From NCBI GenBank assembly GCA_963737265.1, contig CAVTRY010000013.1, positions 515,544 through 579,543 on the forward strand: a DNA stretch of 64,000 bases. The letters are read 5' to 3'. The first letter of the stretch is position 1, and each line of letters opens with the position of its first letter. The notes below the pieces were generated by a model that searched no databases, was not told the origin of the DNA, and saw nothing but the letters and a program-made list of their open reading frames with translations. Below are positions 27,486-56,853 of this stretch, one piece after another. The position numbers were made by a program, and so were the translations under genes. The stretch is from an uncultured delta proteobacterium (lineage in GTDB: Bacteria > Myxococcota_A > Polyangia > Fen-1088).

Positions 27486-29339
27486 TGGGCGAAGTCCTTG
27501 CCGAAAAGTGCCTCGTCGAGCGCCTTAACGTGCTCATGGTGGCCGCGGGCGGTAAGCAATTGGGCTTCCAATTCGGCGAAACCGCGACCCACGTCCTCCT
27601 CGGTATTCGCTCCGGCGTAGATCGACAGAACCCGTTCTTCCAGATCCCGTTCGTCGGTGAGGTTGCCGAGAACCATGTCCATCTCGCCGACCACCAACTC
27701 GAACAGTTGCAGGCGATCGTGGAGAACCGCCAAAACCCGCTCTTCGATGGTGCCACGCGCGCACAGATTGCGAACGGTGACTGCACCCTCCTGGCCGTAG
27801 CGATGCAAGCGACCGATGCGTTGCTCGATCACCATGGGATTCCAGGGCAAGTCGAAATTCACGAGCGAACGGCAGAACTGCAGATTGAGGCCCTCGGCGC
27901 CCACATCGGTCGCAAGGAGAAGCGCGCCATCGGCCTTGAACCTATCGAGTGCCGCCTGCTTCTCGGCGAGCGCGAGCCCGCCGTGCAGCACGGTCGCATC
28001 GAGTCCGAACAGCGCGATTTCGTGGGCGATGTGGTCGAGGGTGGCGCGGTAGCGGGAGAACACTAAGGTCTTGCCCGGCTGCGTGCGCAAGATATCGAGC
28101 AATACCGCGGTTTTGCGCGTGCTGAGGATGCGGACGGCGTCGCGCCCGAGGGCGAGCAGGCGCGAATCGATTGCGGCCTCGTCTTCATCCCGATCGCGCC
28201 GCTTCACCTCCATGCGTTCGATGGTCGCGGCCACCGCCTGGGGGCTGGAGCCCGCCTCAAGCAGTAGGGTCGTCGCCGCTAAGCGTGCCCCCGGCACGTC
28301 TGCGCTCTCGCGAAACAGGGCAAGCGCGCGCTCGTAGAGCGCCCGCTCTTCGGGCGATGGCTCGAACGAGCACCGTGGAGACGAAACGCGGCGGGAGCTT
28401 GAGCCCGCACTGAGCGCGAGTGTTGCGGACCATGACCTCGCCAAGCAGCGAGCGGAGCCGCTCGCGATTTTTGGGCGAGGTGGGATTGGCCGGATCGACG
28501 AAGGCGGCGCGGAAGGCAGCCGGGGTGGCGAACTGACCGGGCCGCAAGAGCGTGACGATTTGGTACAGCTCCTCGAGCTCGTTCTCGATTGGCGTCGCGG
28601 TCAGCAAGAGGAGGAAGCGGCTCTTGATGCCGTTCACAAGGCGAAAACCGGCCGAGCCGCGGCTCTTGACCCTGTGGGCTTCGTCGACAATGACTAGATC
28701 CCACGGCGTAGCCTGCACCGCCGCCATGTGGCGCGCGCTGCGTGCCAACGCCACCGAGGCCACCACCACGCCGTCGCCCTGCCAGAAGTCATCGCCCAGC
28801 AAACGCAACTGACGATCGGCGGTGTGGCGGACCACGAGGCCCGCCTTGGCACCCAACTCCTCGACCCACTGCCCGAGCAACGTCGGCGGCACGAGAATGA
28901 GCGCACGGCGCACCATGCCCCGCAGTTGGTACTCGCGCAGCACCATGATCGCTTCGATAGTTTTGCCGAGCCCGACCTCGTCTGCCAGCAAGCCACGGCC
29001 GCGAAATACCTTGAGCACGCGACGAACCGTTTCGGCCTGGTAGGGCAAGGCGTCCACGCCGACCAAAGTGGCCGGGGAAAGCAGCTCCGAAAAGCTGCTG
29101 GCCGCCGCCAGAGCGTGCGCGCGCAGCACGCGCGCCACCGCGGCGAGACTCACCGGCTGCGAAATCGCCGCCGCTGTGAAGCTTTCCAAGGCCGGCCCCT
29201 CGACCAGGAGGGCTGGGGCGTTTGTATGACCCGGCGTCACGGCTACGATCCGTAGCACGCCAGCTAGTTCCGATCCACACAAGCACGGCACCACACTCTG
29301 CACCACCGCTGCCAGTCCCCCGACGAGCACTACCTTCAC
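27482..29339 (-). CDS. SNF2-family helicase (YqhH-like); frameshift near 28370
   Basis: LLADEVGLGKT, DEAH, LLLTATP; second frame has GAEGLNLQ, DLPWNPMVIEQRIGRLHRYGQ. Confidence 0.9.
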
Positions 29340-46443: not shown

Positions 46444-46951
46444 CTATCTTGACTGCGGCCATCTTTCACGAGGCTTCGCACACTTGGAATGCGAAGACTG
46501 CCACTCGCGTCTTCTGGTGGCCCGGCGCGGGATCATCGAGGCCGGCGATGACCTGACCGTCCTCGATGACGGCTTTGCAGAGCGAGAGCCGGCGCTCGCG
46601 CAACTGGCCGCCGCCGCCGTCGCCGGTCTGGCCATCCCTGCGGGACCTAGGGCCTGCACGCCCTGCCCCTGCCCCACGCGGCTTCGCCGCGCCCGTCGCC
46701 CGCCAGACCCGAGTTGCGCCGCCGCCCCGCCCCCGTGGCTCTGCGCGGACATCCCGGCGTCGAGATCACCGCGCCCCTATCGGTCACCGAGATGGGCTTC
46801 TCCCTGCACGCTGCCACTCGTGCCGGCGCCGACGATGCCCGTGCTCGTGAGGCTTTGTGCAAGTACATTCTTCGCCCGCCGTTAAGCCAGGAGCGCCTGC
46901 ACCTCTTGCCCGATGGCCTCGTCCGCATCGAGTTGCGCAAGCCCTACCGTG
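46444..46951 (+). mobile_element. Near-identical copy of the IS91-like fragment at 34195-34702
   Basis: 508 bp; three substitutions seen by eye; shares the same internal deletion. Confidence 0.85.
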
Positions 46952-47229
46952 TGTTCATATATGCATGGCACAAAGACCGCGCCTGGGGAGGATCCGGTCG
47001 AACGGCGGATTCCCGACCGCGCTGAGTGCGATCGCCCCGTACACTCATGGCGAAGGAAATCGGGGACGTATACAGAGGTAGAGCCGCTGGTAGAGCCGCC
47101 CTCGCCCAGGTCGCACAGTATAGTATTCCAGCCCATGGATTGCAAGCGCAGACGCATCGCGTCAGGTGTTCCGCACGGCGCAGGATGCAAAGGGCGGACA
47201 TTACGCCCGGCATCCGCTACGCTCCTGCC

Positions 47230-47507
47230 ACGCGTAAGGGAAACAAGCGGGAGACGCGTAAGGGAAACAAGCGGGGGCCAGGGTTCGAAAACCGGGTGAG
47301 AAGGGCGTGGACGGGGTTGCCAGCCCGGGGAGGGAGCCCAAGAAGGAGGGGACGAGGACAGGGTTTTGGTCACCTTGGGCGGCAGCATAAAGCGGCAATG
47401 GCGTCTTCGGGCAGACGGCGGCCCGGGCGGCGCGGTCTACGGGCTGCTTGGGCTAGGCGTGGAACATATCGGTCTGAGCATGGGGCTTGCGGCGCAGCTC
47501 GACGCGT
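47230..47507 (-). mobile_element. Mini IS91/ISCR-like terminal fragment
   Basis: Near-identical to the ends at 48748 and 53081; carries only the last codons (ELRRKPHAQTDMFHA); ACGCGT on both sides. Confidence 0.8.
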
Positions 47508-48438: not shown

Positions 48439-48747
48439 CCGGCTGCACACACAACCGATTTCTGCACGGCCACCACATCCAGCACTGGCTGCACGGAGGC
48501 GTTACCAGCTTGGACAACCTTTCATTGCTGTGCTCGCATCACCACCACCAGGTCCACGAAGGCGGTTGGTCCGTCGAGCGAACCGCAGACGGGGATTTGT
48601 GCTTTCGCGCGCCCAACGGGCACGAAGTACCTGCCGTGCCTGCGCGCGAGGTCAGCGAAGATGCGCTCGTGTTCTTGCAAGAATGGGCCGAGGATCGCGG
48701 GCTGGACCTCGGGGCGGATACCAACATGCCGCTTTGGGATGGGACGC
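48439..48747 (+). pseudogene. Second DUF222/HNH endonuclease 3' remnant
   Basis: GCTHNRFLHGHHIQHWLHGGVTSLDNLSLLCSHHHHQVHEGGW. Confidence 0.75.
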
Positions 48748-49510
48748 ACGCGTAAGGGAAACAAGCGGGGGCCAGGGTTCGAAAACCGGGTGAGAAGGGC
48801 CTGGACCGGGTTGCCAGCCCGGGGAGGGAGCCCAAGAAGCCCGGGGAGGGAGCCCAAGAAGGAGGGGACGAGGACAGGGTTTTGGTCACCTTGGGCGGCA
48901 GCATAAAGCGGCAATGGCGTCTTCGGGCAGACGGCGGCCCGGGCGGCGCGGTCTACGGGCTGCTTGGGCTAGGCGTGGAACATATCGGTCTGAGCATGGG
49001 GCTTGCGGCGCAGCTCGCGAACCTTCCAGTAGGGCGGCGCCCTCGCCGGGGCCAGGGGTGGTGGCTCGGTCGGCTCTCCCAGGTGGCGCAGGAACCTGGC
49101 GATGTTCTCGGGCTCCTGCACCAGCGATTTGAGCTTCATCTTGCCCCCGCACTTCGGGCAACGGTCGATGTCTTCCTTGAAGGTTTTCTTGGCGAGGATG
49201 GCCCACGGGATGTAGGCGCAGCGATGGGTAGGGGGGGTGCTTGCGGGTTTGGCGGCATCGCCCTGGGGCGGAGGCGGGGGTAGCGGCACGATCAGAGGGC
49301 GGAGCTTAGCGGCGGGGGCGAGAACACCGGAGTAGCGCACCCCATGCAACCTTGGCGGAGGAATCGTGGTGGCAAGACGGCAAAGCAACGAGAGCGGATC
49401 CATGTCGACGGCGTAGGTGCCGTCTCGGAAAGGCTTGCGGAGTGAAGTGGACCCCAAAAATGGGACCAGGAGCTAAGGTGTAGTCCGCCTCAACAACGAG
49501 GCAGGACACG

Positions 49511-49804
49511 ATGAAAACGAACCGCCAAAAGCACACAGCACTCTTCAAGGCGCAGGTAGCTCTCGAAGCCATGCGGGAGCAGGCAACGGTTGTGGAGATC
49601 GGGCGCCGATACAAGATCAACCCGAACCTGGTTCACAAGTGGAAGAAGGAAGCCGTCACACGGCTGGCCATGGTTTTCGAACCAGGCCATGCAAATGCAG
49701 AGGAATCGGCGAACGCCGAACGCGAATCGGAATTGCTGCGCAAGGTGGGGCAGCTGACGCTGGAGAATGATTTTTTAGCACGCGGGCTCGCGCGCATTCG
49801 CTGA
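49511..49804 (+). CDS. IS3 OrfA (HTH)
   Basis: FKAQVALEA...WKK; T-run slippery site near 49770. Confidence 0.88.
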   Translation: MKTNRQKHTALFKAQVALEAMREQATVVEIGRRYKINPNLVHKWKKEAVTRLAMVFEPGHANAEESANAERESELLRKVGQLTLENDFLARGLARIR

Positions 49805-49818
49805 CGGAGAAGCGCGCC

Positions 49819-50655
49819 ATGATCGAGTCCCACAACGACCTATCTGTCCGTCGGCAGTGCGAGCTGCTGAATCTTGCGAGATCGGGCATCTACTGGGAGC
49901 CGATGCCGATGGCAGAGGAAGATCTGGCCATCTGCAAGGAGCTGGACAAGCTGCATCTTGAATTGCCAGCATTCGGCAGCCGGAAGCTGTCACGGTTGCT
50001 AAAGGCACAGGGGCAGACGGTGAATCGCAAACGGGTGCAGAGACTGATGCGAATCATGGGCATCGAAGCGCTGGCGCCCAAACCACGGACGACCGTGCCC
50101 GCGCCGGAACATACGAAATTCCCGTACTTGCTGCGCCATCTCGCGATCATTCGGCCCAATCAGGTGTGGGCCTCGGATATCACGTACATCCCGACGAGAC
50201 AGGGGCATTGCTACCTGGTCGCCGTGATGGATTGGTACACGCGCCGGGTTCTGTCCTGGCGCATTTCAAACACGATGGACAGCCGTTTTTGCATCGAGGT
50301 CGTGGAAGAAGCTCTTGCGAACTTCGGCTTGCCGGAGATCTTCAACACCGACCAGGGGTCGCAGTTTACCGACGACAACTTCACATCGGTTTTGCTGGAC
50401 AAGGGCGTAAAGGTCAGCATGGACGGTCGCGGCCGATTCATGGACAACATCTTCGTCGAGCGTCTATGGCGGTCTGTCAAATGCGAGGAGGTCTACTTGA
50501 ACGACTACCGAGACGTGGCCGACGCCCGCAGTGGCATCGCGATCTACCTGGACAAGTACAACCACAGGCGGCCTCACCAAACCCTTGGATTTCAGACACC
50601 CGTAGCGTTTTACGAATTCGAACTAAAGAAGTCGGCGATGAAAGAGGCCGCCTAA
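49819..50655 (+). CDS. IS3 OrfB DDE transposase
   Basis: WASDITYI, FNTDQGSQFT, DNIFVERLWRSVKCE. Confidence 0.92.
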   Translation: MIESHNDLSVRRQCELLNLARSGIYWEPMPMAEEDLAICKELDKLHLELPAFGSRKLSRLLKAQGQTVNRKRVQRLMRIMGIEALAPKPRTTVPAPEHTKFPYLLRHLAIIRPNQVWASDITYIPTRQGHCYLVAVMDWYTRRVLSWRISNTMDSRFCIEVVEEALANFGLPEIFNTDQGSQFTDDNFTSVLLDKGVKVSMDGRGRFMDNIFVERLWRSVKCEEVYLNDYRDVADARSGIAIYLDKYNHRRPHQTLGFQTPVAFYEFELKKSAMKEAA

Positions 50656-51230
50656 ATCGCCGCTGCATCATGCTGATGGCACGCTGCCCACAACTGCAAC
50701 GCGTTCACCTGCTTCTGTGGGGCCGTGCGCGCATTGCATCCGTGGACAGCAGCCATCAGCATGCCTCCGCTCTCAACAATTTCCTTGCCGGCGAGGCTCA
50801 CCCGGATCTACAAACAAACCCACGCGGACTCTCTCTTAGCTCGGGCCATTTCTGGTCCTACCAAAGGGGTCCACTTCAGAGCGTGATGCGGACCAGACCG
50901 TCTGGCAGGAGGCTCAGGCGCTCTTGGGCCAGGGGCGGGCGAAGCACGTACTTGCACAGGGCTTCGCGGCCACGAGCGTCTTCGGCGCCAGCGCGAGTGG
51001 CAGCATGCAGGGAGAACCCGAACTCGGTGACGGAAAGGGGCGCTGTCACTTCGACGCCGGGGTGGCCGCGCAGCATCACGGGTTCGGGGCGGCGGCGCAA
51101 CTCGGGGCCAGCAGGCGGCAGGCCAGACACGGCGGCAGCGGCCAACTGGGCCAGGGCCGGCTCGCGCTCGGCGAAGCCGTCGTCGGCCCTGCGCCTCAAT
51201 CATCTCGAACGTCTCGTTAACGGCAAGGCG

Positions 51231-51422
51231 TTAGCCAGACGGCGGAGGGACTTCGAGGTCACGACAAATTTTGCGGGCAAGGTGGTCGTTGATCTCGGTG
51301 TGACGAGGAACCGTCGAGGTCTTTCGAGCCACCGTATTCATGAAGACGGAGTGGCGCCCTCCCTCGCGCAGGAGAACGCACCCATGACTCTGTAGGTGGT
51401 GGACGAGGTCGCGACGTTTCAA
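51231..51422 (-). CDS. hicA: HicA toxin
   Basis: LREGGRHSVF, VPRHTEI, KICRDL. Confidence 0.9.
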   Translation of the reverse strand: MKRRDLVHHLQSHGCVLLREGGRHSVFMNTVARKTSTVPRHTEINDHLARKICRDLEVPPPSG

Positions 51423-51640
51423 CGGTGGGCCGCCTGGAGCGGTTCTCGGATGTCGGCCTGCCCGGCGTCCTGCTGGGCCATCGTGCGATTGGCCTCAAGC
51501 ACCAACTCGACGGCCTCCAGGAGGCTGTCCCGTGCTTCATCGAGAGTACTTCCCTGGGTGTTTGCTCCAGGCAGTTCCTCGACGTACCCGATGTATCCCT
51601 CGGGGACCTTCCGGAAGACGGCCGTCAATGCGATGTTCAT
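51419..51640 (-). CDS. hicB: HicB antitoxin (short form)
   Basis: ELPGANTQGSTLDEARDSLLEAV; overlaps the hicA start. Confidence 0.9.
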   Translation of the reverse strand: MNIALTAVFRKVPEGYIGYVEELPGANTQGSTLDEARDSLLEAVELVLEANRTMAQQDAGQADIREPLQAAHR

Positions 51641-51667
51641 GGTACGAAGGATAGCGCGCGGGACGAT

Positions 51668-51760
51668 GGCTAACAAGTAGGCGTTTGATCCGGCCGCAGC
51701 CATAGATATTCCCCTGACTGGCTGAATTCGCGCGCGGCCGGATTGAACGTCTGGTTGAGC
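51668..51760 (-). other. attC-like recombination site
   Basis: GCTCAAC-cagac-GTTCAATCCGGCCGC...GCGGCCGGATCAAAC-gcctactt-GTTAGCC. Confidence 0.6.
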
Positions 51761-52023
51761 CAAGCCGCGGGTTCGGGAGGAGAAGTGACTCTTCTGCCCA
51801 TGGGCAAAGCAGGTCGACTTTTCGAGCAGCGGGGCGATCGGGACGATGCTTTTGCTGGGGTCGGAGGTTGTCGACGGTCGCGAGTGAACCGAGAAAACGA
51901 GAATCGTGCGTGCTCGAAGGCGCGGGAAACCCGTCGCCCACGACGAACGCACAGAGGTTTCCATGGCCGTCGGAATGAAGACGACAGCCTGGTTGCAGGC
52001 GACAGCTCCAAGCGAGAGGACAT

Positions 52024-53080
52024 TCATGACGAGTCGAGCGGCGGGGCGCGTGCCGATGGTCGCGTGTCAGCGAGCGGTTGGCTCAACATGGGGCCACCGC
52101 AGCTGGAACAGGTGCCGAGGTCGATGCCGGTGAGCTTCTGAAAGAGAGCACGCCAATCCAGGGCGTCGATTTCTTGAGCCAGGGGCGCTGGCGGCAGTGG
52201 CGCGTTGTGGCTAGGCTGATGATTGCGATTTTCGATAGCAGTGCGGGCGGCAGCAAGGTTGGAATGGACGTTGCTCGCGGCGTACAGGCCGAAGTGTCTG
52301 ATCTTCACGAAGCCGCGAGGCAAGACGTGCAGAAGAAAACGGCGCATGAATTCCAGGATGACGAGCCGACAGAATTTCTTGTCGCGCGTGCGGAAGACGA
52401 CCTCGTTGTCATCGACGTGCAGCAGCCGCTGGTTGGAGATGGCGACCCGGTGGGTGTACAGGCCAAGGTATTGAAAGAGAGCATCGGGGTTTTGGAAGGG
52501 TGCCTTCGCATAGACCACCCAGTTCTTTTCGTAGAGAGCATTCTTGAGGTGGGCGAAGGCGGCGGGCTCGACGAGAGCGGCGACGGCTTTGGGAGGGCGC
52601 AGACCGGGTTTGAGTTTGCCGTCGGCAACCAGGCGATTCAGGCCATCGAGGAATTTCCCGCGAAACAGTTTGCCGAGGACTTTGACCGGAAGCAGATACT
52701 TTTCAGGCGAATCGACCCACGCGCCGTCGGCGCCGAGGCCGCCGCCGGTGACGATGCAATGAAGGTGCGGGTGAAAGATGAGATTGCGTCCCCACGTATG
52801 GACGACGCCGGTGACGCCGACCAGTGCACCGATCCGTTGCGCGTCGTGTGCGAGTGCAAGGATGGTTTCGCTGGCCGCTTTGAACAGCAGGTCGAGAAGC
52901 AAGACCTTGTATTCGCGAACCAGCGGGCGCAATTCGGCGGGCAGGGTGAAGACGACGTGAAAGTGGCGCACGGGCAGTGCGCGCTCCATGCGCGCGGCGA
53001 CCCAGCGGGCTTGTCGCAAAGCCTGGCACTTGGGGCAGTGCCGATTGCGACACGAATTGTAGACCACGCGCGCGTCGCCG
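52024..53080 (-). mobile_element. Canonical IS91-family Y2 transposase, 5'-truncated
   Basis: YNSCRNRHCPKCQ, HVVFTLP, HTWG..HPHLH (HUH), YLGLY (YxxxY), KIRHFG. Confidence 0.92.
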
Positions 53081-54620
53081 ACGCGTAAGGGAAACAAGCG
53101 GGGGCCAGGGTTCGAAAACCGGGTGAGAAGGGCGTGGACGGGGTTGCCAGCCCGGGGAGGGAGCCCAAGAAGGAGGGGGCCAGGGTTCGAAAACCGGGTG
53201 AGAAGGGCGTGGACGGGGTTGCCAGCCCGGGGAGGGAGCCCAAGAAGGAGGGGACGAGGACAGGGTTTTGGTCACCTTGGGCGGCAGCATAGAGCGGCAA
53301 TGGCGTCTTCGGGCAGACGGCGGCCCGGGCGGCGCGGTCTACGGGCTGCTTGGGCTAGGCGTGGAACATATCGGTCTGAGCATGGGGCTTGCGGCGCAGC
53401 TCGCGAACCTTCCAGTAGGGCGGCGCCCTCGCCGGGGCCAGGGGTGGTGGCTCGGTCGGCTCTCCCAGGTGGCGCAGGAACCTGGCGATGTTCTCGGGCT
53501 CCTGCACCAGCGATTTGAGCTTCATCTTGCCCCCGCACTTCGGGCAACGGTCGATGTCTTCCTTGAAGGTTTTCTTGGCGAGGATGGCCCACGGGATGTA
53601 GGCGCAGCGATGGGTAGGGGGGGTGCTTGCGGGTTTGGCGGCATCGCCCTGGGGCGGAGGCGGGGGTAGCGGCACGATCAGAGGGCGGAGCTTAGCGGCG
53701 GGGGCGAGAACACCGGAGTAGCGCACCCCATGCAACCTTGGCGGAGGAATCGTGGTGGCAAGACGGCAAAGCAACGAGAGCGGATCCATGTCGACGGCGT
53801 AGGTGCCGTCTCGGAAAGGCTTGCGGAGCGTGATGCGGACCAGACCGTCTGGCAGGAGGCTCAGGCGCTCTTGGGCCAGGGGCGGGCGAAGCACGTACTT
53901 GCACAGGGCTTCGCGGCCACGAGCGTCTTCGGCGCCAGCGCGGGTGGCAGCATGCAGGGAGAACCCGAACTCGGTGACGGAAAGGGGCGCTGTCACTTCG
54001 ACGCCGGGGTGGCCGCGCAGCATCACGGGTTCGGGGCGGCGGCGCAACTCGGGGCCAGCAGGCGGCAGGCCAGACACGGCGGCAGCGGCCAACTGGGCCA
54101 GGGCCGGCTCGCGCTCGGCGAAGCCGTCGTCGAGCACGGTCAGGTCGGAGCCAGGCTCGATGATGCCACGGCGGACAAGGTGTGCGAGGACGCGGGTACG
54201 CACCACCTGCAAGAGGTCGCCGACCTCCTCGGTCGAGAGGCGTGGCAGGGCGTGGAAGACCGGCTTGCCGTCGGGCACGGTCGCAAAGACACCATCGACG
54301 AAAATGGCGTGCAGGTGCGGGTTAAGCTTCACGTCGGCGTTGTTCCGCTGCGCGACCATGACCGCACCGCTGCGGCCGTCGCGAATGCCTTCGTCGCGCA
54401 TTCGGCGTCGATACCATCCAAGAACCGAGTCCATGAAGATCCTGCCGACCGCGCGCAGGGTCTTGCCATCGTAGGCCAGACGCTGGCGAAGCTCGAAGGG
54501 AAATGTCACCACGAACTGTCGCAGGGGAGTTGCTGGCAGCACGTGTTCGAGCCAATTCGTCGCGGTCTGTGCCATTCTTCTACCCGTACACGAGGGGCAA
54601 AATCCGCGCGACTTGCAGCT
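53081..54620 (-). mobile_element. IS91/ISCR-like element; transposase 53355-54620 lacks its N-terminus
   Basis: SCKSRGFCPSC, RQFVVTFP, NPHLH, LCKYVLRPP (single Tyr); terminus CCCGCTTGTTTCCCTTACGCGT. Confidence 0.88.
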
Positions 54621-54719
54621 CCAGCTTGGCCTGGCTGGTGAGCTTCGGCGTGTATCAGGTTGGCCGCGCTCTGGGCGGGTAGAAGAGGACACTGGATGGG
54701 TGTCACTACACATGCTACT

Positions 54720-54938
54720 ATGACACCCATGACGAAGACTCAGGTCTATTTGCAGGATGAAGATTTGGCAGCCCTGCACCAAATTGCAAAACGGACCAGT
54801 CGGCCCGTGGCCGGGTTGATCCGCGAGGCGATCCGAAAGGTCTGGCTTCGGCCGTCGACGAAGGGCCCGGTCGGTCTGTGGGACGGGCAGCCCCGCGCCA
54901 CCTCCGCCGAACACGACGCCATTTACGACCAGCCGTGA
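54720..54938 (+). CDS. CopG/RHH antitoxin
   Basis: KTQVYL...L...A.....VAGLIREAI; GTGA overlap with the PIN gene. Confidence 0.8.
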   Translation: MTPMTKTQVYLQDEDLAALHQIAKRTSRPVAGLIREAIRKVWLRPSTKGPVGLWDGQPRATSAEHDAIYDQP

Positions 54939-56853
54939 CTCGAAGCAACGATCTGGTCTTCGTGGATACAGGTGCCTGGATCGCGCTGGCGCTGACCCGC
55001 GATCCCTTGCACGATCGAGCCAGGGCCGCATGGGAGGGATTGCTCGACAAGGGGTCGCGACTGGCGACCTCGATTCCGGTCGTACTAGAAACCTGGTTCA
55101 TCGCGCGTTCGGGTGATTGCGAAGGCAACGGCGTAGCCGCCGCTCCGGGGGCCGGCAAGGCGCTTCGCGCCTCCTCCGCTTCGCTCCGGCCCTACGGGTG
55201 ACGGCCTCCTCGCTGGCGGCTCAGGTGCTGCTATGCGACGACGAGGATCTCGTCGCCGCGCGCGACGGTGCGCGAAATGAAAAGTGGACGTCCGTCGGTG
55301 ATCCTTCGGGTTTATGCAAATCACGAGGAACTCCCAACGAACGTCCGTCCCTGGTATTTTGGCATTGCAGCTGGCCATTGCAAACGGCTGGCGTGTCAGT
55401 TTCGACAGCTACAGCGGTACCGATGGCTCCTGGCATGTACACCTGTATCCGACCAGGCAGTCGGCTGTGTGCTCCGGCTGTGGAGAGACCAAGCGCTGCG
55501 CGCTGGATATCAAGAATTGCGCCCGGGCCTGGCGTCATCTCGACGGTTGGGGCATCCGCACGGTCGTCATCGCGCCTCTGCGGCGCGTGCGCTGTCGCCG
55601 CTGTGGGATCCGGGTCGAACAGGTCCCGTGGGCGCGCACCGGCTCGCGCATGACTCACATGTTCGAGGCGGAGGTCCTGCGGCGTGCCCGCACGACTTCC
55701 ATTGCCGGCGTGTGCCGCCAACTCGGGCTGCACTGGACTACCGTCATGCGCCTCATCACCCACTGGGTCGAGGATGCGGTCGAGCGCCGCTTCCATCGCA
55801 AGCTTCGCATCATCGGCGTCGACGAGGTCAGCTACGGCCGAGGCCAGAACAAGTATCTGACCATCGTCTGGGACCACGAGGCCGGACACGTGGTTTGGAT
55901 CGGCGAGGGCAAGCAGGAGGAAACACTCAAGCAGTTTTTCGTGAAGCTGGGACCGCGCCGGTCGCATCGGCTGGTGGCAGTCACGCTGGACATGGCCCAA
56001 GGCTACATCAACGCCATCTGCGAACATGCCCCACAGGCTGACCTCGTCTTCGACCGATTCCACATCGAGCACCACCTCACCGACGCCGTCGACCAGGTCC
56101 GCAAGGCGGAATTTTGGCGCAAGGGTGGCCTGTATCGCGAGGCCATCCGAGGCAAGAAGTTCCTCCTGCTCAAGAAGCGTCGTCGTCTTCACTGGCGTCG
56201 CCGTCGCGAGCTTGACGAGCTATTCCGCCTCAACCGACGTCTCCAGGTAGCGTACCTGCTCAAGGAGCAGTTCGACGTCGTATGGGGCTATCACACTGAG
56301 GTCGGTATGGCTGCAGCACTCGACCACTGGCGTCGCCTATTACGCTGGCAACGACTTGGCTCGTTGAAGCGATTCTGGAACATGATTAAGCGCCATTGGT
56401 CGGGCGTTATTGCCTGGGCCAAGCACGGTCTTTCCAACGCAGCCCTCGAAGGCAACAATTCACGTGTTCGCGGCATCAGCCAGCGTGGCCACGGCTACCG
56501 CAACCCCGACAACCTCATGCAGATCCTGTATTTCTCATGCTGCCACTGACCCTCGACGGAAGCTCACCCGAAAGCGTGATGGGCGAGAAACCTTCACCTT
56601 CCTCGATCGCAACGCGACCCAAGACGTTGCTCTCGCCTGGAAGAACTCCTTGGCTAGTCTGCCGCGATTTCGTCTGCTGGAGTGCGGGAGCCACGACCTC
56701 GAACGTGCTTGGGTCTACTTCGCCAAACCCGAGCTCCACAAGCTATCCGCCGTGGACGCCACCAGCTTCGTGCTCATGGCGCGCGAAAGGATCCGACTGG
56801 CGTTCGCCTTCGACCACCACTTCGCTTCAGCCGGTTTTCGCATGGTTGACTAG
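54935..56853 (+). pseudogene. vapC: VapC/PIN toxin split by ISL3
   Basis: VFVDTGAWIA...VVLET, then FTFL...LSAVDATSFVLM...FAFDHHFASAGF after the IS. Confidence 0.88.
55095..56585 (+). mobile_element. ISL3-family IS, 1491 bp; transposase 55314-56549
   Basis: 8-bp TSD AGAAACCT; imperfect IRs ending TTCGGGTGA; IGVDE, TLDM, FDRFHI, SNAALEGNN. Confidence 0.93.

Follow-up and report, generated by a model that had tools for sequence, protein, structure and literature searches.

An integron cassette starts with TTRRRY and ends with RYYYAAC, an imperfect palindrome and a G, and the integrase IntI recombines its folded bottom strand. Two kinds of mobile elements are known to occupy a fixed place, in a fixed orientation, in the attC sites of cassette arrays: IS1111-attC elements of the IS110 family, which have a DEDD transposase, and group IIC-attC introns, which are ribozymes with a reverse transcriptase. 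Both insert inside attC. In IS91 and ISCR elements oriIS lies downstream of the transposase gene and terIS upstream of it, and the targets are CTTG or GTTC. ISCR1 is found beside class 1 integrons, linked to the 3' conserved segment and not to attC. ISfinder/TnPedia reportedly covers IS91 members whose integrase gene lies upstream.

We analysed a window of 64,000 nucleotides, by which the whole stretch of DNA is meant. In it, the 3' end of an IS91-family element, IS-B, is joined to a hicBA toxin-antitoxin pair. The existence of this array-unit junction, formed by an IS91 end, a hairpin and a hicBA cassette, is confirmed and lies far beyond chance. The region is probably the junction of two units of a cassette array, namely the 3' part of a dead, cassette-shaped IS-B and an ordinary hicBA cassette. 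The coordinates of the IS-B end, the hairpin and hicBA are all read on the minus strand. The features are listed below; a slash in a motif marks a junction.

53081 to 55031, minus strand: IS-A, a second IS91-type element with a 558-aa ORF (Pfam Y2_Tnp, 67.9 bits), whose 3' end truncates IS-B
52024 to 53097, minus strand: Y2 (HUH) transposase gene of IS-B, its 5' part cut off at about 53080 by the IS-A end
51754 to 51768, minus strand: right inverted repeat (IRR) box GCGGCTTGGCTCAAC, reverse complement of the IS-B left end
51683 to 51748, minus strand: terminal hairpin, supported by folds and stem covariation
51675 to 51682, minus strand: unpaired tail GCCTACTT, of the family type CTAnnn ahead of GTT, based on the tails of relatives
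51668 to 51674, minus strand: GTTAGCC in the R' position, with the IS/cassette junction G/TT between 51674 and 51673
51419 to 51640, minus strand: hicB antitoxin gene (Pfam UPF0150-like, 26.5 bits, just below the cut-off of 27.3)
51231 to 51422, minus strand: hicA toxin gene (Pfam HicA_toxin, 38 bits, cut-off 27)
51217 to 51236, minus strand: start of the cassette attC, first 20 nt, with R'' GGCTAAC, spacer GCCTT and L'' GCCGTTAA
51183 to 51217, minus strand: piece of about 35 bp from inside the reverse-transcriptase gene of a group II intron (100% match to C7:243887-243918)
50880 to 51190, minus strand: piece from inside the transposase gene of IS-A that duplicates approximately 54128-53820 and is cut by an IS3-family element
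49511 to 50879, plus strand: IS3-family element with orfA and orfB (ORFs 49511-49804 and 49819-50655), which terminates the IS-A fragment

The transposase ORF of IS-B ends at 52024 (minus strand), and CCGCGGCTTG-GCTCAAC is located at 51770-51754 (minus strand), 253 nt past the stop codon. The IRR box is the reverse complement, at 14 of 15 positions, of the IS-B left end GTTGAACCAAGCCGC at C11:1184473, and its last 7 nt, GCTCAAC (51760-51754), stand in the role of R''. The sequence-only reading had described an imperfect palindrome ending in GTTAGCC, a hicB start 27 nt further on and a hicA stop codon within GGCTAAC, and the sequence bears out all of this: GCTCAAC (51760) to GTTAGCC (51674-51668) spans 93 nt, hicB starts at 51640, and GGCTAAC (R'') lies at 51236-51230. 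The 3' terminal structure of IS-B at 51668-51768 (minus strand) consists of the inverted repeat, the hairpin, a short tail and GTT. The two hairpin arms, 51748-51734 and 51697-51683, are 15 nt each; the hairpin also contains an internal loop and bulges. The tails closest to that of the window are CAAACGCCTATTGGTT in G001, a genome of the same genus, and CAAACGCCTATTAGTT in locus L029. All seven genome copies of the IS-B 3' end stop at ...CTACTTGTT and diverge directly past GTT.

The hicBA unit is a genuine integron cassette: it meets the cassette criteria and begins at the crossover point G/TT, that is, at G/TTAGCC. Its bounds are TTAGCC at the start and GGCTAACGCCTTGCCGTTAA at the end. The hicB gene is paired with hicA and is kept in five other genomes of the family. 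GGCTAAC is followed by GCCTTGCCGTTAA and then by foreign DNA, the cassette attC being cut off after 20 nt. The same 20 nt begin the full attC at C17:104530 and close a vapBC cassette at C13:372320; the hicBA and vapBC cassettes have GTTAGCCA...CTGGCTAACGCCTTGCCGTTAA in common. The sequence past the cut attC of vapBC was also considered as a possible IS end, and this is unsupported, there being only one partial extra copy. In G001 a 94% identical hicBA cassette stands behind an ordinary 104-nt attC (...CAACGGCTTG/TTAGCCA), and in genomes G009 and G007 the cassette has attC sequence on both sides. The attC-family end and the location behind an ordinary attC in G001 uphold the suggestion, made from the sequence alone, that hicBA is an integron-type cassette.

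The same reading held that the cassette is truncated by another element. It is indeed truncated, but the first piece past the cut attC is the group II intron fragment of about 35 bp, and the internal fragment of an IS91-type transposase comes second. The intron fragment is 93-94% identical to three C14 copies, and a full copy of the intron matches Rfam RF02003 (106 bits), RVT_1 and GIIM. The ORF at 50876..51199 repeats part of the 558-aa ORF of IS-A. IS-A contains a 75-bp tandem repeat at 53100-53253 (2.1 copies, 100% matches), and its 51-nt end recurs at more than ten places. The IS3-family element ends in TGAAGTGGACCCC; its family was assigned by eye, without a profile scan.

About 36 attC sites, arranged in arrays, are present in the source genome together with a single full intI gene (C17:93644-94585, 455.7 bits against the TIGR02249 cut-off of 265). 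The covariance model R1, built from 15 attCs of this genome, gave 38 matches across it at E ≤ 1, two of which repeat a matched site on the opposite strand. The attCs of C17 lie at 96887-104530, past the 3' end of intI and on the opposite strand. A direct-repeat search upstream of this intI found no array, and a naive attC finder (RYYYAAC...GTTRRRY with a forced fold) found nothing in C17:60000-94000, as it was too strict and the attCs lie outside the scanned stretch. Strict word searches with the halves of the hairpin yielded few sites; the attC family was revealed by the 20-mer at the hicA end.

The IS-B hairpin occupies the place where the attC of an IS-B "cassette" would be, and it satisfies the array-position criterion for attC, a location at the 3' end of a unit with R' complementing the next R''. 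This complementarity extends over 7/7 bases in the window, C13b, C12, C23 and L140, and over 6/7 in C11a and L141; there is no match in C11b or in L139, where the R'' of the next attC is TATCAAC. The reverse complement of the first 7-mer past the end occurs within 700 nt downstream for four of the seven IS-end copies, against a background of 5.2% at 99,577 random GTT sites (P = 2.3e-4). The inverse core RYYYAAC is matched by GCTCAAC, and the core GTTRRRY is not strictly matched by GTTAGCC, which has C at the third R. Among the other copies of the IS-B end, GTTGGGC and GTTGGAC fit the core and GTTCGCC does not; the last six bases of the R' core are part of the next cassette.

Scoring with an attC covariance model had been proposed as a check. 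The hairpin does not score with R1, which represents the attCs of the source genome and is not the model of IntegronFinder. Applied to the window, R1 gave no match on the hairpin at E ≤ 10, and with filters switched off the best whole-hairpin alignments scored 5.0 bits (opposite strand) and 4.0 bits. The only R1 match in the window that rests on attC family sequence is the 20-nt attC start (14.2 bits); two weaker ones look like chance. No match to the hairpins of G001 was seen at E ≤ 0.1, and no IS-B hairpin copy was found by R1. The Rfam search of 51000-52100 at E ≤ 10 gave only three chance matches, none of them relevant. The palindrome is real, yet its spacing geometry is opposite to that of the host attCs: with a stem that begins at GACGTT, the unpaired spacers measure 2 and 5 nt (5 and 8 nt as counted in the sequence-only reading), whereas in the host attCs they are 5 and 2 nt, and thus the asymmetry is reversed.

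IS-B satisfies the Y2 HUH transposase criterion for membership in the IS91 family. Its transposase matches NCBIfam NF033538 transpos_IS91 with 337.8 bits (cut-off 125) and Pfam Y2_Tnp with 189.7 bits, and the match to Zn_Tnp_IS91 is limited to profile positions 45-90 of 90; the untruncated start of the protein is seen in the copy on contig C11. Intact copies of the element have a length of 2.6-2.7 kb, start with TTGAAC... and, as anticipated from the sequence alone, contain a gene of an IntI-like tyrosine recombinase upstream of the Y2 transposase gene. The search for the predicted left end with two mismatches produced noise, and the left end of IS-B was located via the recombinase instead. 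The N-terminal part of the IS-B recombinase matches the integron-integrase model TIGR02249 with 104 bits, and three recombinases of relatives score 187-197 bits, all below the cut-off of 265. The latter match in two stretches, indicating that the IntI insertion is absent. Thus the IS recombinases do not meet the integron-integrase criteria, either the TIGR02249 cut-off or the IntI-specific insertion; their best NCBIfam matches are XerA/integron integrase and integrase_gron. The passage of Smyshlyaev et al. (bioRxiv 10.1101/542381) on these proteins assigns the recombinases of IS91 elements to an "Integron-like" subgroup, found in IS91 and IS3 transposons; among the homologues of IntI it ranks them closest, the IntI insertion being absent.

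Sites of IS-B insertion were considered in several genomes. The source genome contains no intact IS-B and only one 5' junction, attC...CCACGGCTTG/TTGAACCAAGCCGC. The attC at this junction scores 53.6 bits, and the junction indicates that IS-B begins at the R' core of a real attC. In G001 all three intact copies are preceded by an attC ending in the first bases of the element, and further attCs on the same strand flank each of them on both sides; each copy takes one cassette slot. In G011 two attCs lie downstream of the single copy. In the L140 array the R' of each attC complements the next R'', and the rule continues through the element: R' GTTGAAC of the attC matches IRR GTTCAAC of the IS, and R' GTTAGCC of the IS matches the next R'' GGCTAAC. 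The plan of IS-B is that of a cassette: the TTGAAC... start has its complement in the IRR, which acts as R'' and is followed by a long hairpin, an unpaired tail and G. The pair of left (IRL) and right (IRR) inverted repeats of the IS-B type is present in 37 of 80 related loci. Among 33 relatives examined, the last base of the IRR pairs with the first base of the IRL in 28, and the tail repeats the first triplet of the element in 21, compared with 23/99 for the other three triplets.

The hairpin had been suggested to precede cassettes. This is true of the IS-B lineage, where five of the seven 3' ends in the source genome are followed by a toxin-antitoxin or other cassette ending in attC-type sequence and where the G001 arrays agree. 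Residence in arrays is a property of the IS-B lineage (G000, G001 and G011; G002 by eye) and not of the subgroup at large. A lineage of 65% identity with three copies in a genome of the same genus has no attC nearby and varied 5' flanks. None of the relatives from other phyla was shown to reside in an attC array, no R1 match being found in the five loci scanned, and relatives multiply outside arrays. The motif ...CTT/GTT is present at both junctions in the IS-B lineage, whereas in other lineages the left flanks vary. A test for family-wide targeting of hairpins was negative: sequences upstream of the elements of relatives (n = 32) show no hairpin enrichment, with a mean of -8.5 versus -8.3 kcal/mol (p = 0.38).

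Since the hairpin replaces the integron recombination site, the element sits in arrays as if it were a cassette. These data are best read as an IS91 lineage with the shape of a cassette, for which the attC core is the point of entry into arrays. The architecture, positions, complementarity rule and conservation are established directly, and the inserting enzyme is not shown. The junctions are compatible with both targeting of attC and mimicry of attC. The Y2 enzyme would produce a circular, probably single-stranded, copy of IS-B; this step is inferred, no circular form having been seen. A tyrosine recombinase, either that of the element or the host IntI, may then recombine the folded IRR-hairpin-tail-IRL site at N/TT, a supposition made without any observed enzyme activity. 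In genomes with integrons this putative reaction would place the element at the R' core of an attC. On a broader and clearly more speculative view, which we consider possible but would not favour, IS91 elements with recombinases are self-mobilising cassettes: Y2 would supply the single-stranded circle and the IntI-like recombinase would integrate its folded IRR-hairpin-IRL site at N/TT through the chemistry used in attC x attI. In that case this transposon family would have a common origin with IntI and attC, and these elements could transport cassettes, or whole sections of arrays, from one genome to another.

An alternative that we regard as unlikely, while taking it seriously, is ordinary rolling-circle insertion of an IS91 element by Y2 alone, beside a short word (CTTG/GTT, on the other strand NAAC) within the conserved attC sequence GGCTTGTT. 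The tyrosine recombinase would have no role in insertion, and the likeness to a cassette would be a by-product. The IS91 family is known to insert beside CTTG or GTTC without duplication, every attC of the host family contains CTTGTT or a near variant, ...GGCTT precedes the 5' junctions in G000-C11, L139 and L140, and the flanks on the other strand are GAAC, CAAC or TAAC. Indeed, the junctions themselves cannot distinguish CTT/GTT insertion from G/TT crossover. However, such insertion predicts that the R' following the element complements the R'' of the preceding attC, which fails in L139 (GTCGAAC versus GTTAGCC) and L140 (GCCGAAC versus GTTAGCC). What complements the start of the element is instead its own IRR, and in L140 and L141, though not in L139, its R' is complementary to the R'' of the following cassette. 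Moreover, the left flanks of two-copy relatives end in CCG, CG or G and not in CTTG, and this alternative accounts neither for the conservation of the recombinase gene nor for the covariation of the terminal triplet.

It is still less probable that the hairpin is a true host attC and not part of the element, IS91 being inside an ordinary cassette or having captured attC by read-through. The 3' arm with the tail (AACGCCTACTTGTTAG) almost exactly matches C13:211791-211864, C13:212428-212501 and C11:1222-1392, the global alignment with the first of these has z = 5.6, and hairpin pieces of 29-69 nt without the IS body are present at C12, C11:681190 and C14. However, the terminal architecture of IRR, hairpin and tail is the same in all 33 relatives examined, from several other phyla, with the hairpin starting 1-5 nt past the IRR in each. 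In the stem alignment 91% of cells are paired, both sides have changed in five of the 20 pairs, and the covariation score is matched by none of 500 shuffles, so the changes are compensatory. In copy pairs from other genomes the hairpin belongs to the identical part, and it is not scored by R1. Finally, the tail CAAACGCCTAnTnGTT is inherited in the IS lineage (L029, G001, G002 and G011), and thus the three odd attCs are more likely to be hybrids or scars of the element. We conclude that the hairpin was inherited within the IS subgroup and is not a captured attC; that it travels with the element had been proposed, and both the compensatory changes and the copy pairs agree.

The last explanation, by which both the palindrome next to a toxin-antitoxin pair and the complementary 7-mer arose by chance, can draw on the fold of the transposase-sense (minus) strand as single-stranded DNA, which is only modestly better than shuffles (-23.0 kcal/mol, z -2.1, 6/200 equally stable; for the plus strand -27.8 kcal/mol, z -4.0, 0/200), but is already refuted by the frequency of the 7-mer, the stem covariation, the architecture of the relatives and the 20-nt attC start common to two unrelated toxin-antitoxin pairs.

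The interpretation given by the sequence-only reading is supported with qualifications: the hairpin is inherited, it does not score with R1, and array residence is limited to the IS-B lineage. Recombinases of the IS-B kind, lacking the IntI insertion, are the "Integron-like" ones of IS91 and IS3 transposons, and the passage that describes them (10.1101/542381) deals with proteins only and contains nothing on DNA ends, the hairpin or residence in arrays. In the titles, abstracts and some passages of the literature searched, supplements not included, no attC-like end or array residence is described for IS91 elements.

Integrons are a major route of gene collection in bacteria, and the origin of attC and IntI is unsettled. 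The known residents of attC, IS1111-attC and group IIC introns, merely use the site, whereas IS-B has all the formal features of a cassette. It supplies a folded site of its own and, next to a transposase producing single strands, encodes the nearest relatives of IntI known so far. If this shape reflects the mechanism, it connects rolling-circle transposition with integron recombination in a way that can be tested, and it would add a new way of seeding, breaking or moving arrays. For annotation, it means that attC models will miss the IS-B ends and that arrays will be split into apparent attC clusters without an integrase.

Like IS91 and ISCR elements, IS-B has a Y2 transposase and an exact 3' end, with structured sequence about 250 nt past the gene. 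Unlike them, it has an additional gene of an IntI-like recombinase, its right inverted repeat is set back from the end by about 95 nt, with the hairpin and the tail after it, and the terminal triplet varies together with the element's first base. IS1111-attC elements and group IIC-attC introns are similarly mobile elements fixed at the attCs of arrays, but they use other enzymes, insert inside attC and have no cassette form, whereas IS-B stands at the crossover point with its own attC-like site. It differs from an integron cassette in its length of 2.6-2.7 kb, its own recombinase and transposase, the R box of 15 bp, the reversed spacer asymmetry, the failure to match the host attC model and the multiplication of its relatives outside arrays. 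Like an integron cassette, it is bounded by G/TT on both sides, its first bases complement the box before the terminal hairpin, and it occupies one array slot in the cassette orientation, with the R'/R'' rule running through it.

The IS91-family element whose broken 3' part ends in a hairpin before hicBA, here called IS-B, and the cassette genes that follow it are arranged as follows.

53097..52024, minus strand: Y2 transposase gene of IS-B (NF033538 and Pfam Y2_Tnp)
253 nt, minus strand: non-coding DNA after the Y2 transposase gene
51768-51754, minus strand: right-repeat box GCGGCTTGGCTCAAC
51748-51734 and 51697-51683, minus strand: hairpin with 15-nt arms
after the hairpin, minus strand: unpaired tail GCCTACTT
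51674-51672, minus strand: GTT after the tail
51640..51419, minus strand: hicB
51422..51231, minus strand: hicA
51236-51217, minus strand: GGCTAACGCCTTGCCGTTAA, cut attC start at the end of hicA

The transposase clearly belongs to the IS91 family (NF033538, 337.8 bits with a cut-off of 125; the Pfam Y2_Tnp model matches as well). Its zinc domain is halved, because another IS91-type element, IS-A, ends against it at 53081. Three foreign pieces lie 3' of hicA: about 35 bp from the interior of a group II intron reverse-transcriptase gene, full copies of which were confirmed elsewhere in the source genome, then an internal part of the IS-A transposase gene, and then an IS3-type element. The sequence-only reading, which described an attC-like hairpin between an IS91 element and a hicBA cassette, was right in all details but one, the nature of the piece that truncates first, now assigned to the intron reverse transcriptase. 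The window copy of IS-B is a dead relic. IS-A itself (window 53081-55031, minus strand) has a 558-aa ORF, and its 3' region includes a perfect tandem repeat of 75 bp (53100-53253). More than 10 places in the source genome share the 51-nt end of IS-A, and several broken copies lie within the window, also at 46900-47400 and 48520-49460.

The source assembly (6.55 Mb, 25 contigs) contains seven copies of the IS-B 3' end, 29 to 501 nt long. All seven halt at ...CTACTTGTT (GCT in one), with divergent flanks beyond. No intact IS-B was found anywhere in this genome. The front part is known from a second partial copy on contig C11: it opens with GTTGAACCAAGCCGC as the left end, continues with a tyrosine recombinase gene interrupted by about 9.4 kb of inserted DNA, and includes the beginning of the Y2 gene. 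Of the 15 positions of the left end, 14 are reverse-complementary to the box before the hairpin. At C14:308791-309350 one group II intron copy has, about 130 nt ahead of its reverse-transcriptase ORF, 29 nt of the IS-B end (the last bases being CTTGCT); a normal intron 5' end would not fit into this gap. The intron is present in full at C14:373000-375800 (Rfam RF02003), near C14:389776 and near C7:243900.

The 20-mer 3' of hicA led to the site family GNCNAAC-GCCTT-GCCGTTMAGC...GCTKCAACGGC-TT-GTTNNNC. A covariance model, R1, was built from 15 sites of this family; three sites with a 3-nt insertion were excluded, and no IS end was included. In the source genome it yields 38 matches at E<=1, two being opposite-strand repeats of the same sites. 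The arrays that they form are on C11 (1170802-1198917), at two places on C13, and on C7 and C17. The genome has a single complete integron integrase gene (C17:93644-94585, 456 bits, cut-off 265), besides several fragments. At C17:93644-104530 the full intI (plus strand) and the nearest attCs (minus strand, 96887-104530) are convergent, not divergent as in the textbook integron, and the attI side was not found there. R1 has three weak matches in the window. Sequence of the attC family underlies just one of them, the truncated site 3' of hicA (14.2 bits, E 0.19); the one at 27515-27604 (plus strand, 12.5 bits, E 0.5) is most likely due to chance.

The hicBA pair is a true integron cassette. In the same-genus genome G001 it is 94% identical over 441 nt and directly follows an ordinary 104-nt attC, ...GCTGCAACGGCTTG|TTAGCCA; in two further genomes (G009, G007) attC sequence is present at both sides. 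A vapBC pair after another IS-B end is bounded by the identical words GTTAGCCA...CTGGCTAACGCCTTGCCGTTAA, and the reverse complement of the first flanking 7-mer occurs within 700 nt at 4/7 IS-B ends, compared to a background of 5.2% (n = 99,577; P = 2.3e-4). The attCs after hicA (window 51217) and vapC (C13:372339) are cut at the same base, GCCGTTAA|, with unrelated DNA beyond; what follows the vapBC site recurs only once more, in part (C13:377015-377132). At C11:681906-682020, the attC of an RHH-PIN cassette extends only as far as GACTAACGCCTTGCCGG, where a series of GGGATCCCCTCCGAGGGTACTTTCC-like repeats cuts it off.

The sole IS-B 5' end in the source genome reads GCCCAAC...CCACGGCTTG|TTGAACCAAGCCGC and starts exactly at R', the 3' core, of an attC scoring 53.6 bits with R1. 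A DNA match was observed in 12 of the 41 genomes searched, own and related. G001 has three intact copies (93-97% identical mutually, 73% to IS-B), each at an attC whose last bases are the first bases of the element, with more same-strand attCs at both sides. The G011 copy has two attCs downstream. The G002 copy is preceded by ...GCAACGGCT|GTTGAAC, and R1 has no match at its 5' flank. The region G002:C21:78868-85800 has an intI (281 bits, one internal TGA), directly after it one element of the IS-B kind, and beyond that a second on the other strand.

Each R' in the array at locus L140 is complementary to the next R'', the inverse core (GTTCGGC/GCCGAAC, GTTCGAC/GTCGAAC, GTTCGGC/GCCGAAC), and this rule holds through the element (GTTGAAC/GTTCAAC, next GTTAGCC/GGCTAAC). 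At L141 it holds for 6 of 7 bases, and at L139 it does not hold. Had the element simply inserted into a single attC, the R' that follows it should be complementary to the R'' that precedes it, which fails at L139 and L140. The element has formal cassette anatomy and fills cassette slots at G|TT.

Probably, IS-B is a cassette-shaped element that enters arrays at the attC core, although the inserting enzyme is not established. In IS91-type transposition the Y2 enzyme yields single-stranded DNA, and it would be the expected source here. By inference, a circular copy would join the tail to the left repeat, so that an R box of 15 bp encloses the hairpin; strand exchange at N|TT might then be the work of a tyrosine recombinase, either the element's own or the host IntI, which is undecided. 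The recombinases of IS-B and three relatives have the XerA/integron-integrase and integron-integrase models as best matches, below the integron cut-off; the model is matched in two stretches, and thus they lack the IntI insertion. In a preprint on tyrosine recombinases (10.1101/542381), those of IS91 and IS3 transposons form an 'Integron-like' subgroup, the closest IntI homologues without its insertion. The other possibility, that the Y2 enzyme alone targets the word CTT|GTT by a plain rolling-circle mechanism, is unlikely.

Neither the window hairpin nor those of G001 are matched by R1; when its filters are switched off, the top alignment spanning the entire hairpin reaches 5.0 bits, on the opposite strand. 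There the spacing, 7-5-6...6-2-7, is that of host sites, and therefore the spacer asymmetry is reversed in the cassette orientation. Three otherwise typical host attCs (C13:211791-211864, C13:212428-212501, C11:1222-1392) have the IS-type tail (CAACGCCTACTTGTT or CTATTTGTT) instead of CAACGGCTTGTT. As the tail CAAACGCCTAnTnGTT is inherited within the IS lineage, it is more likely that these sites are hybrids, or scars left by the element, than that they were its source. That the hairpin is a captured attC seems very doubtful. Residence of the cassette-shaped element in arrays is demonstrated for the IS-B lineage only: a 65%-identical lineage is present in the same-genus genome G012 in three copies, whose 5' flanks vary and none of which has an R1 site closer than about 3 kb; five more named relatives that were scanned also lack R1 sites; and hairpins are not in excess among relatives over the 70 nt that precede the element (n = 32 against 1388 control windows, p = 0.38).

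The hairpin is a property of the insertion sequence IS-B. Related transposases (40-54% identical) come from many phyla, and 80 of 591 confirmed loci were kept. Four within-genome copy pairs delimit 2.5-2.6 kb units of recombinase, transposase, right repeat, hairpin and tail. A recognisable repeat pair exists in 37/80 loci; 33 of these, with enough sequence and without duplicate copies, were examined. The hairpin starts 1-5 nt past the right repeat in all 33. Pairing between the left repeat's first base and the right repeat's last base is seen in 28, and in 21 the opening triplet of the element (GTT, ATT, TTT or CTT) recurs in the tail within 12 nt (23/99 for the other three triplets). In an alignment of seven 3' ends, from the source genome, G001, G002 and one named relative, representing only about four lineages, 91% of cells are paired and 5/20 pairs have changes on both sides. 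The covariation, 0.157 against <=0.048 for slid controls, was matched by none of 500 shuffles. As an explanation of the whole junction, chance can be practically dismissed. The strand that is 'bottom' relative to cassettes folds at -27.8 kcal/mol versus -23.0 for the other, which G-T pairs alone may explain. At L154 (G012:C37:103000-111000, the same as L029) the 3' end of a tRNA-like sequence is present on both sides of the element, in inverted copies, and the flanks would, without the element, form a long palindrome centred on GTTAAC.

Full-text literature searches gave no description of attC-like ends or array residence for IS91 elements. The known attC dwellers rely on other enzymes.
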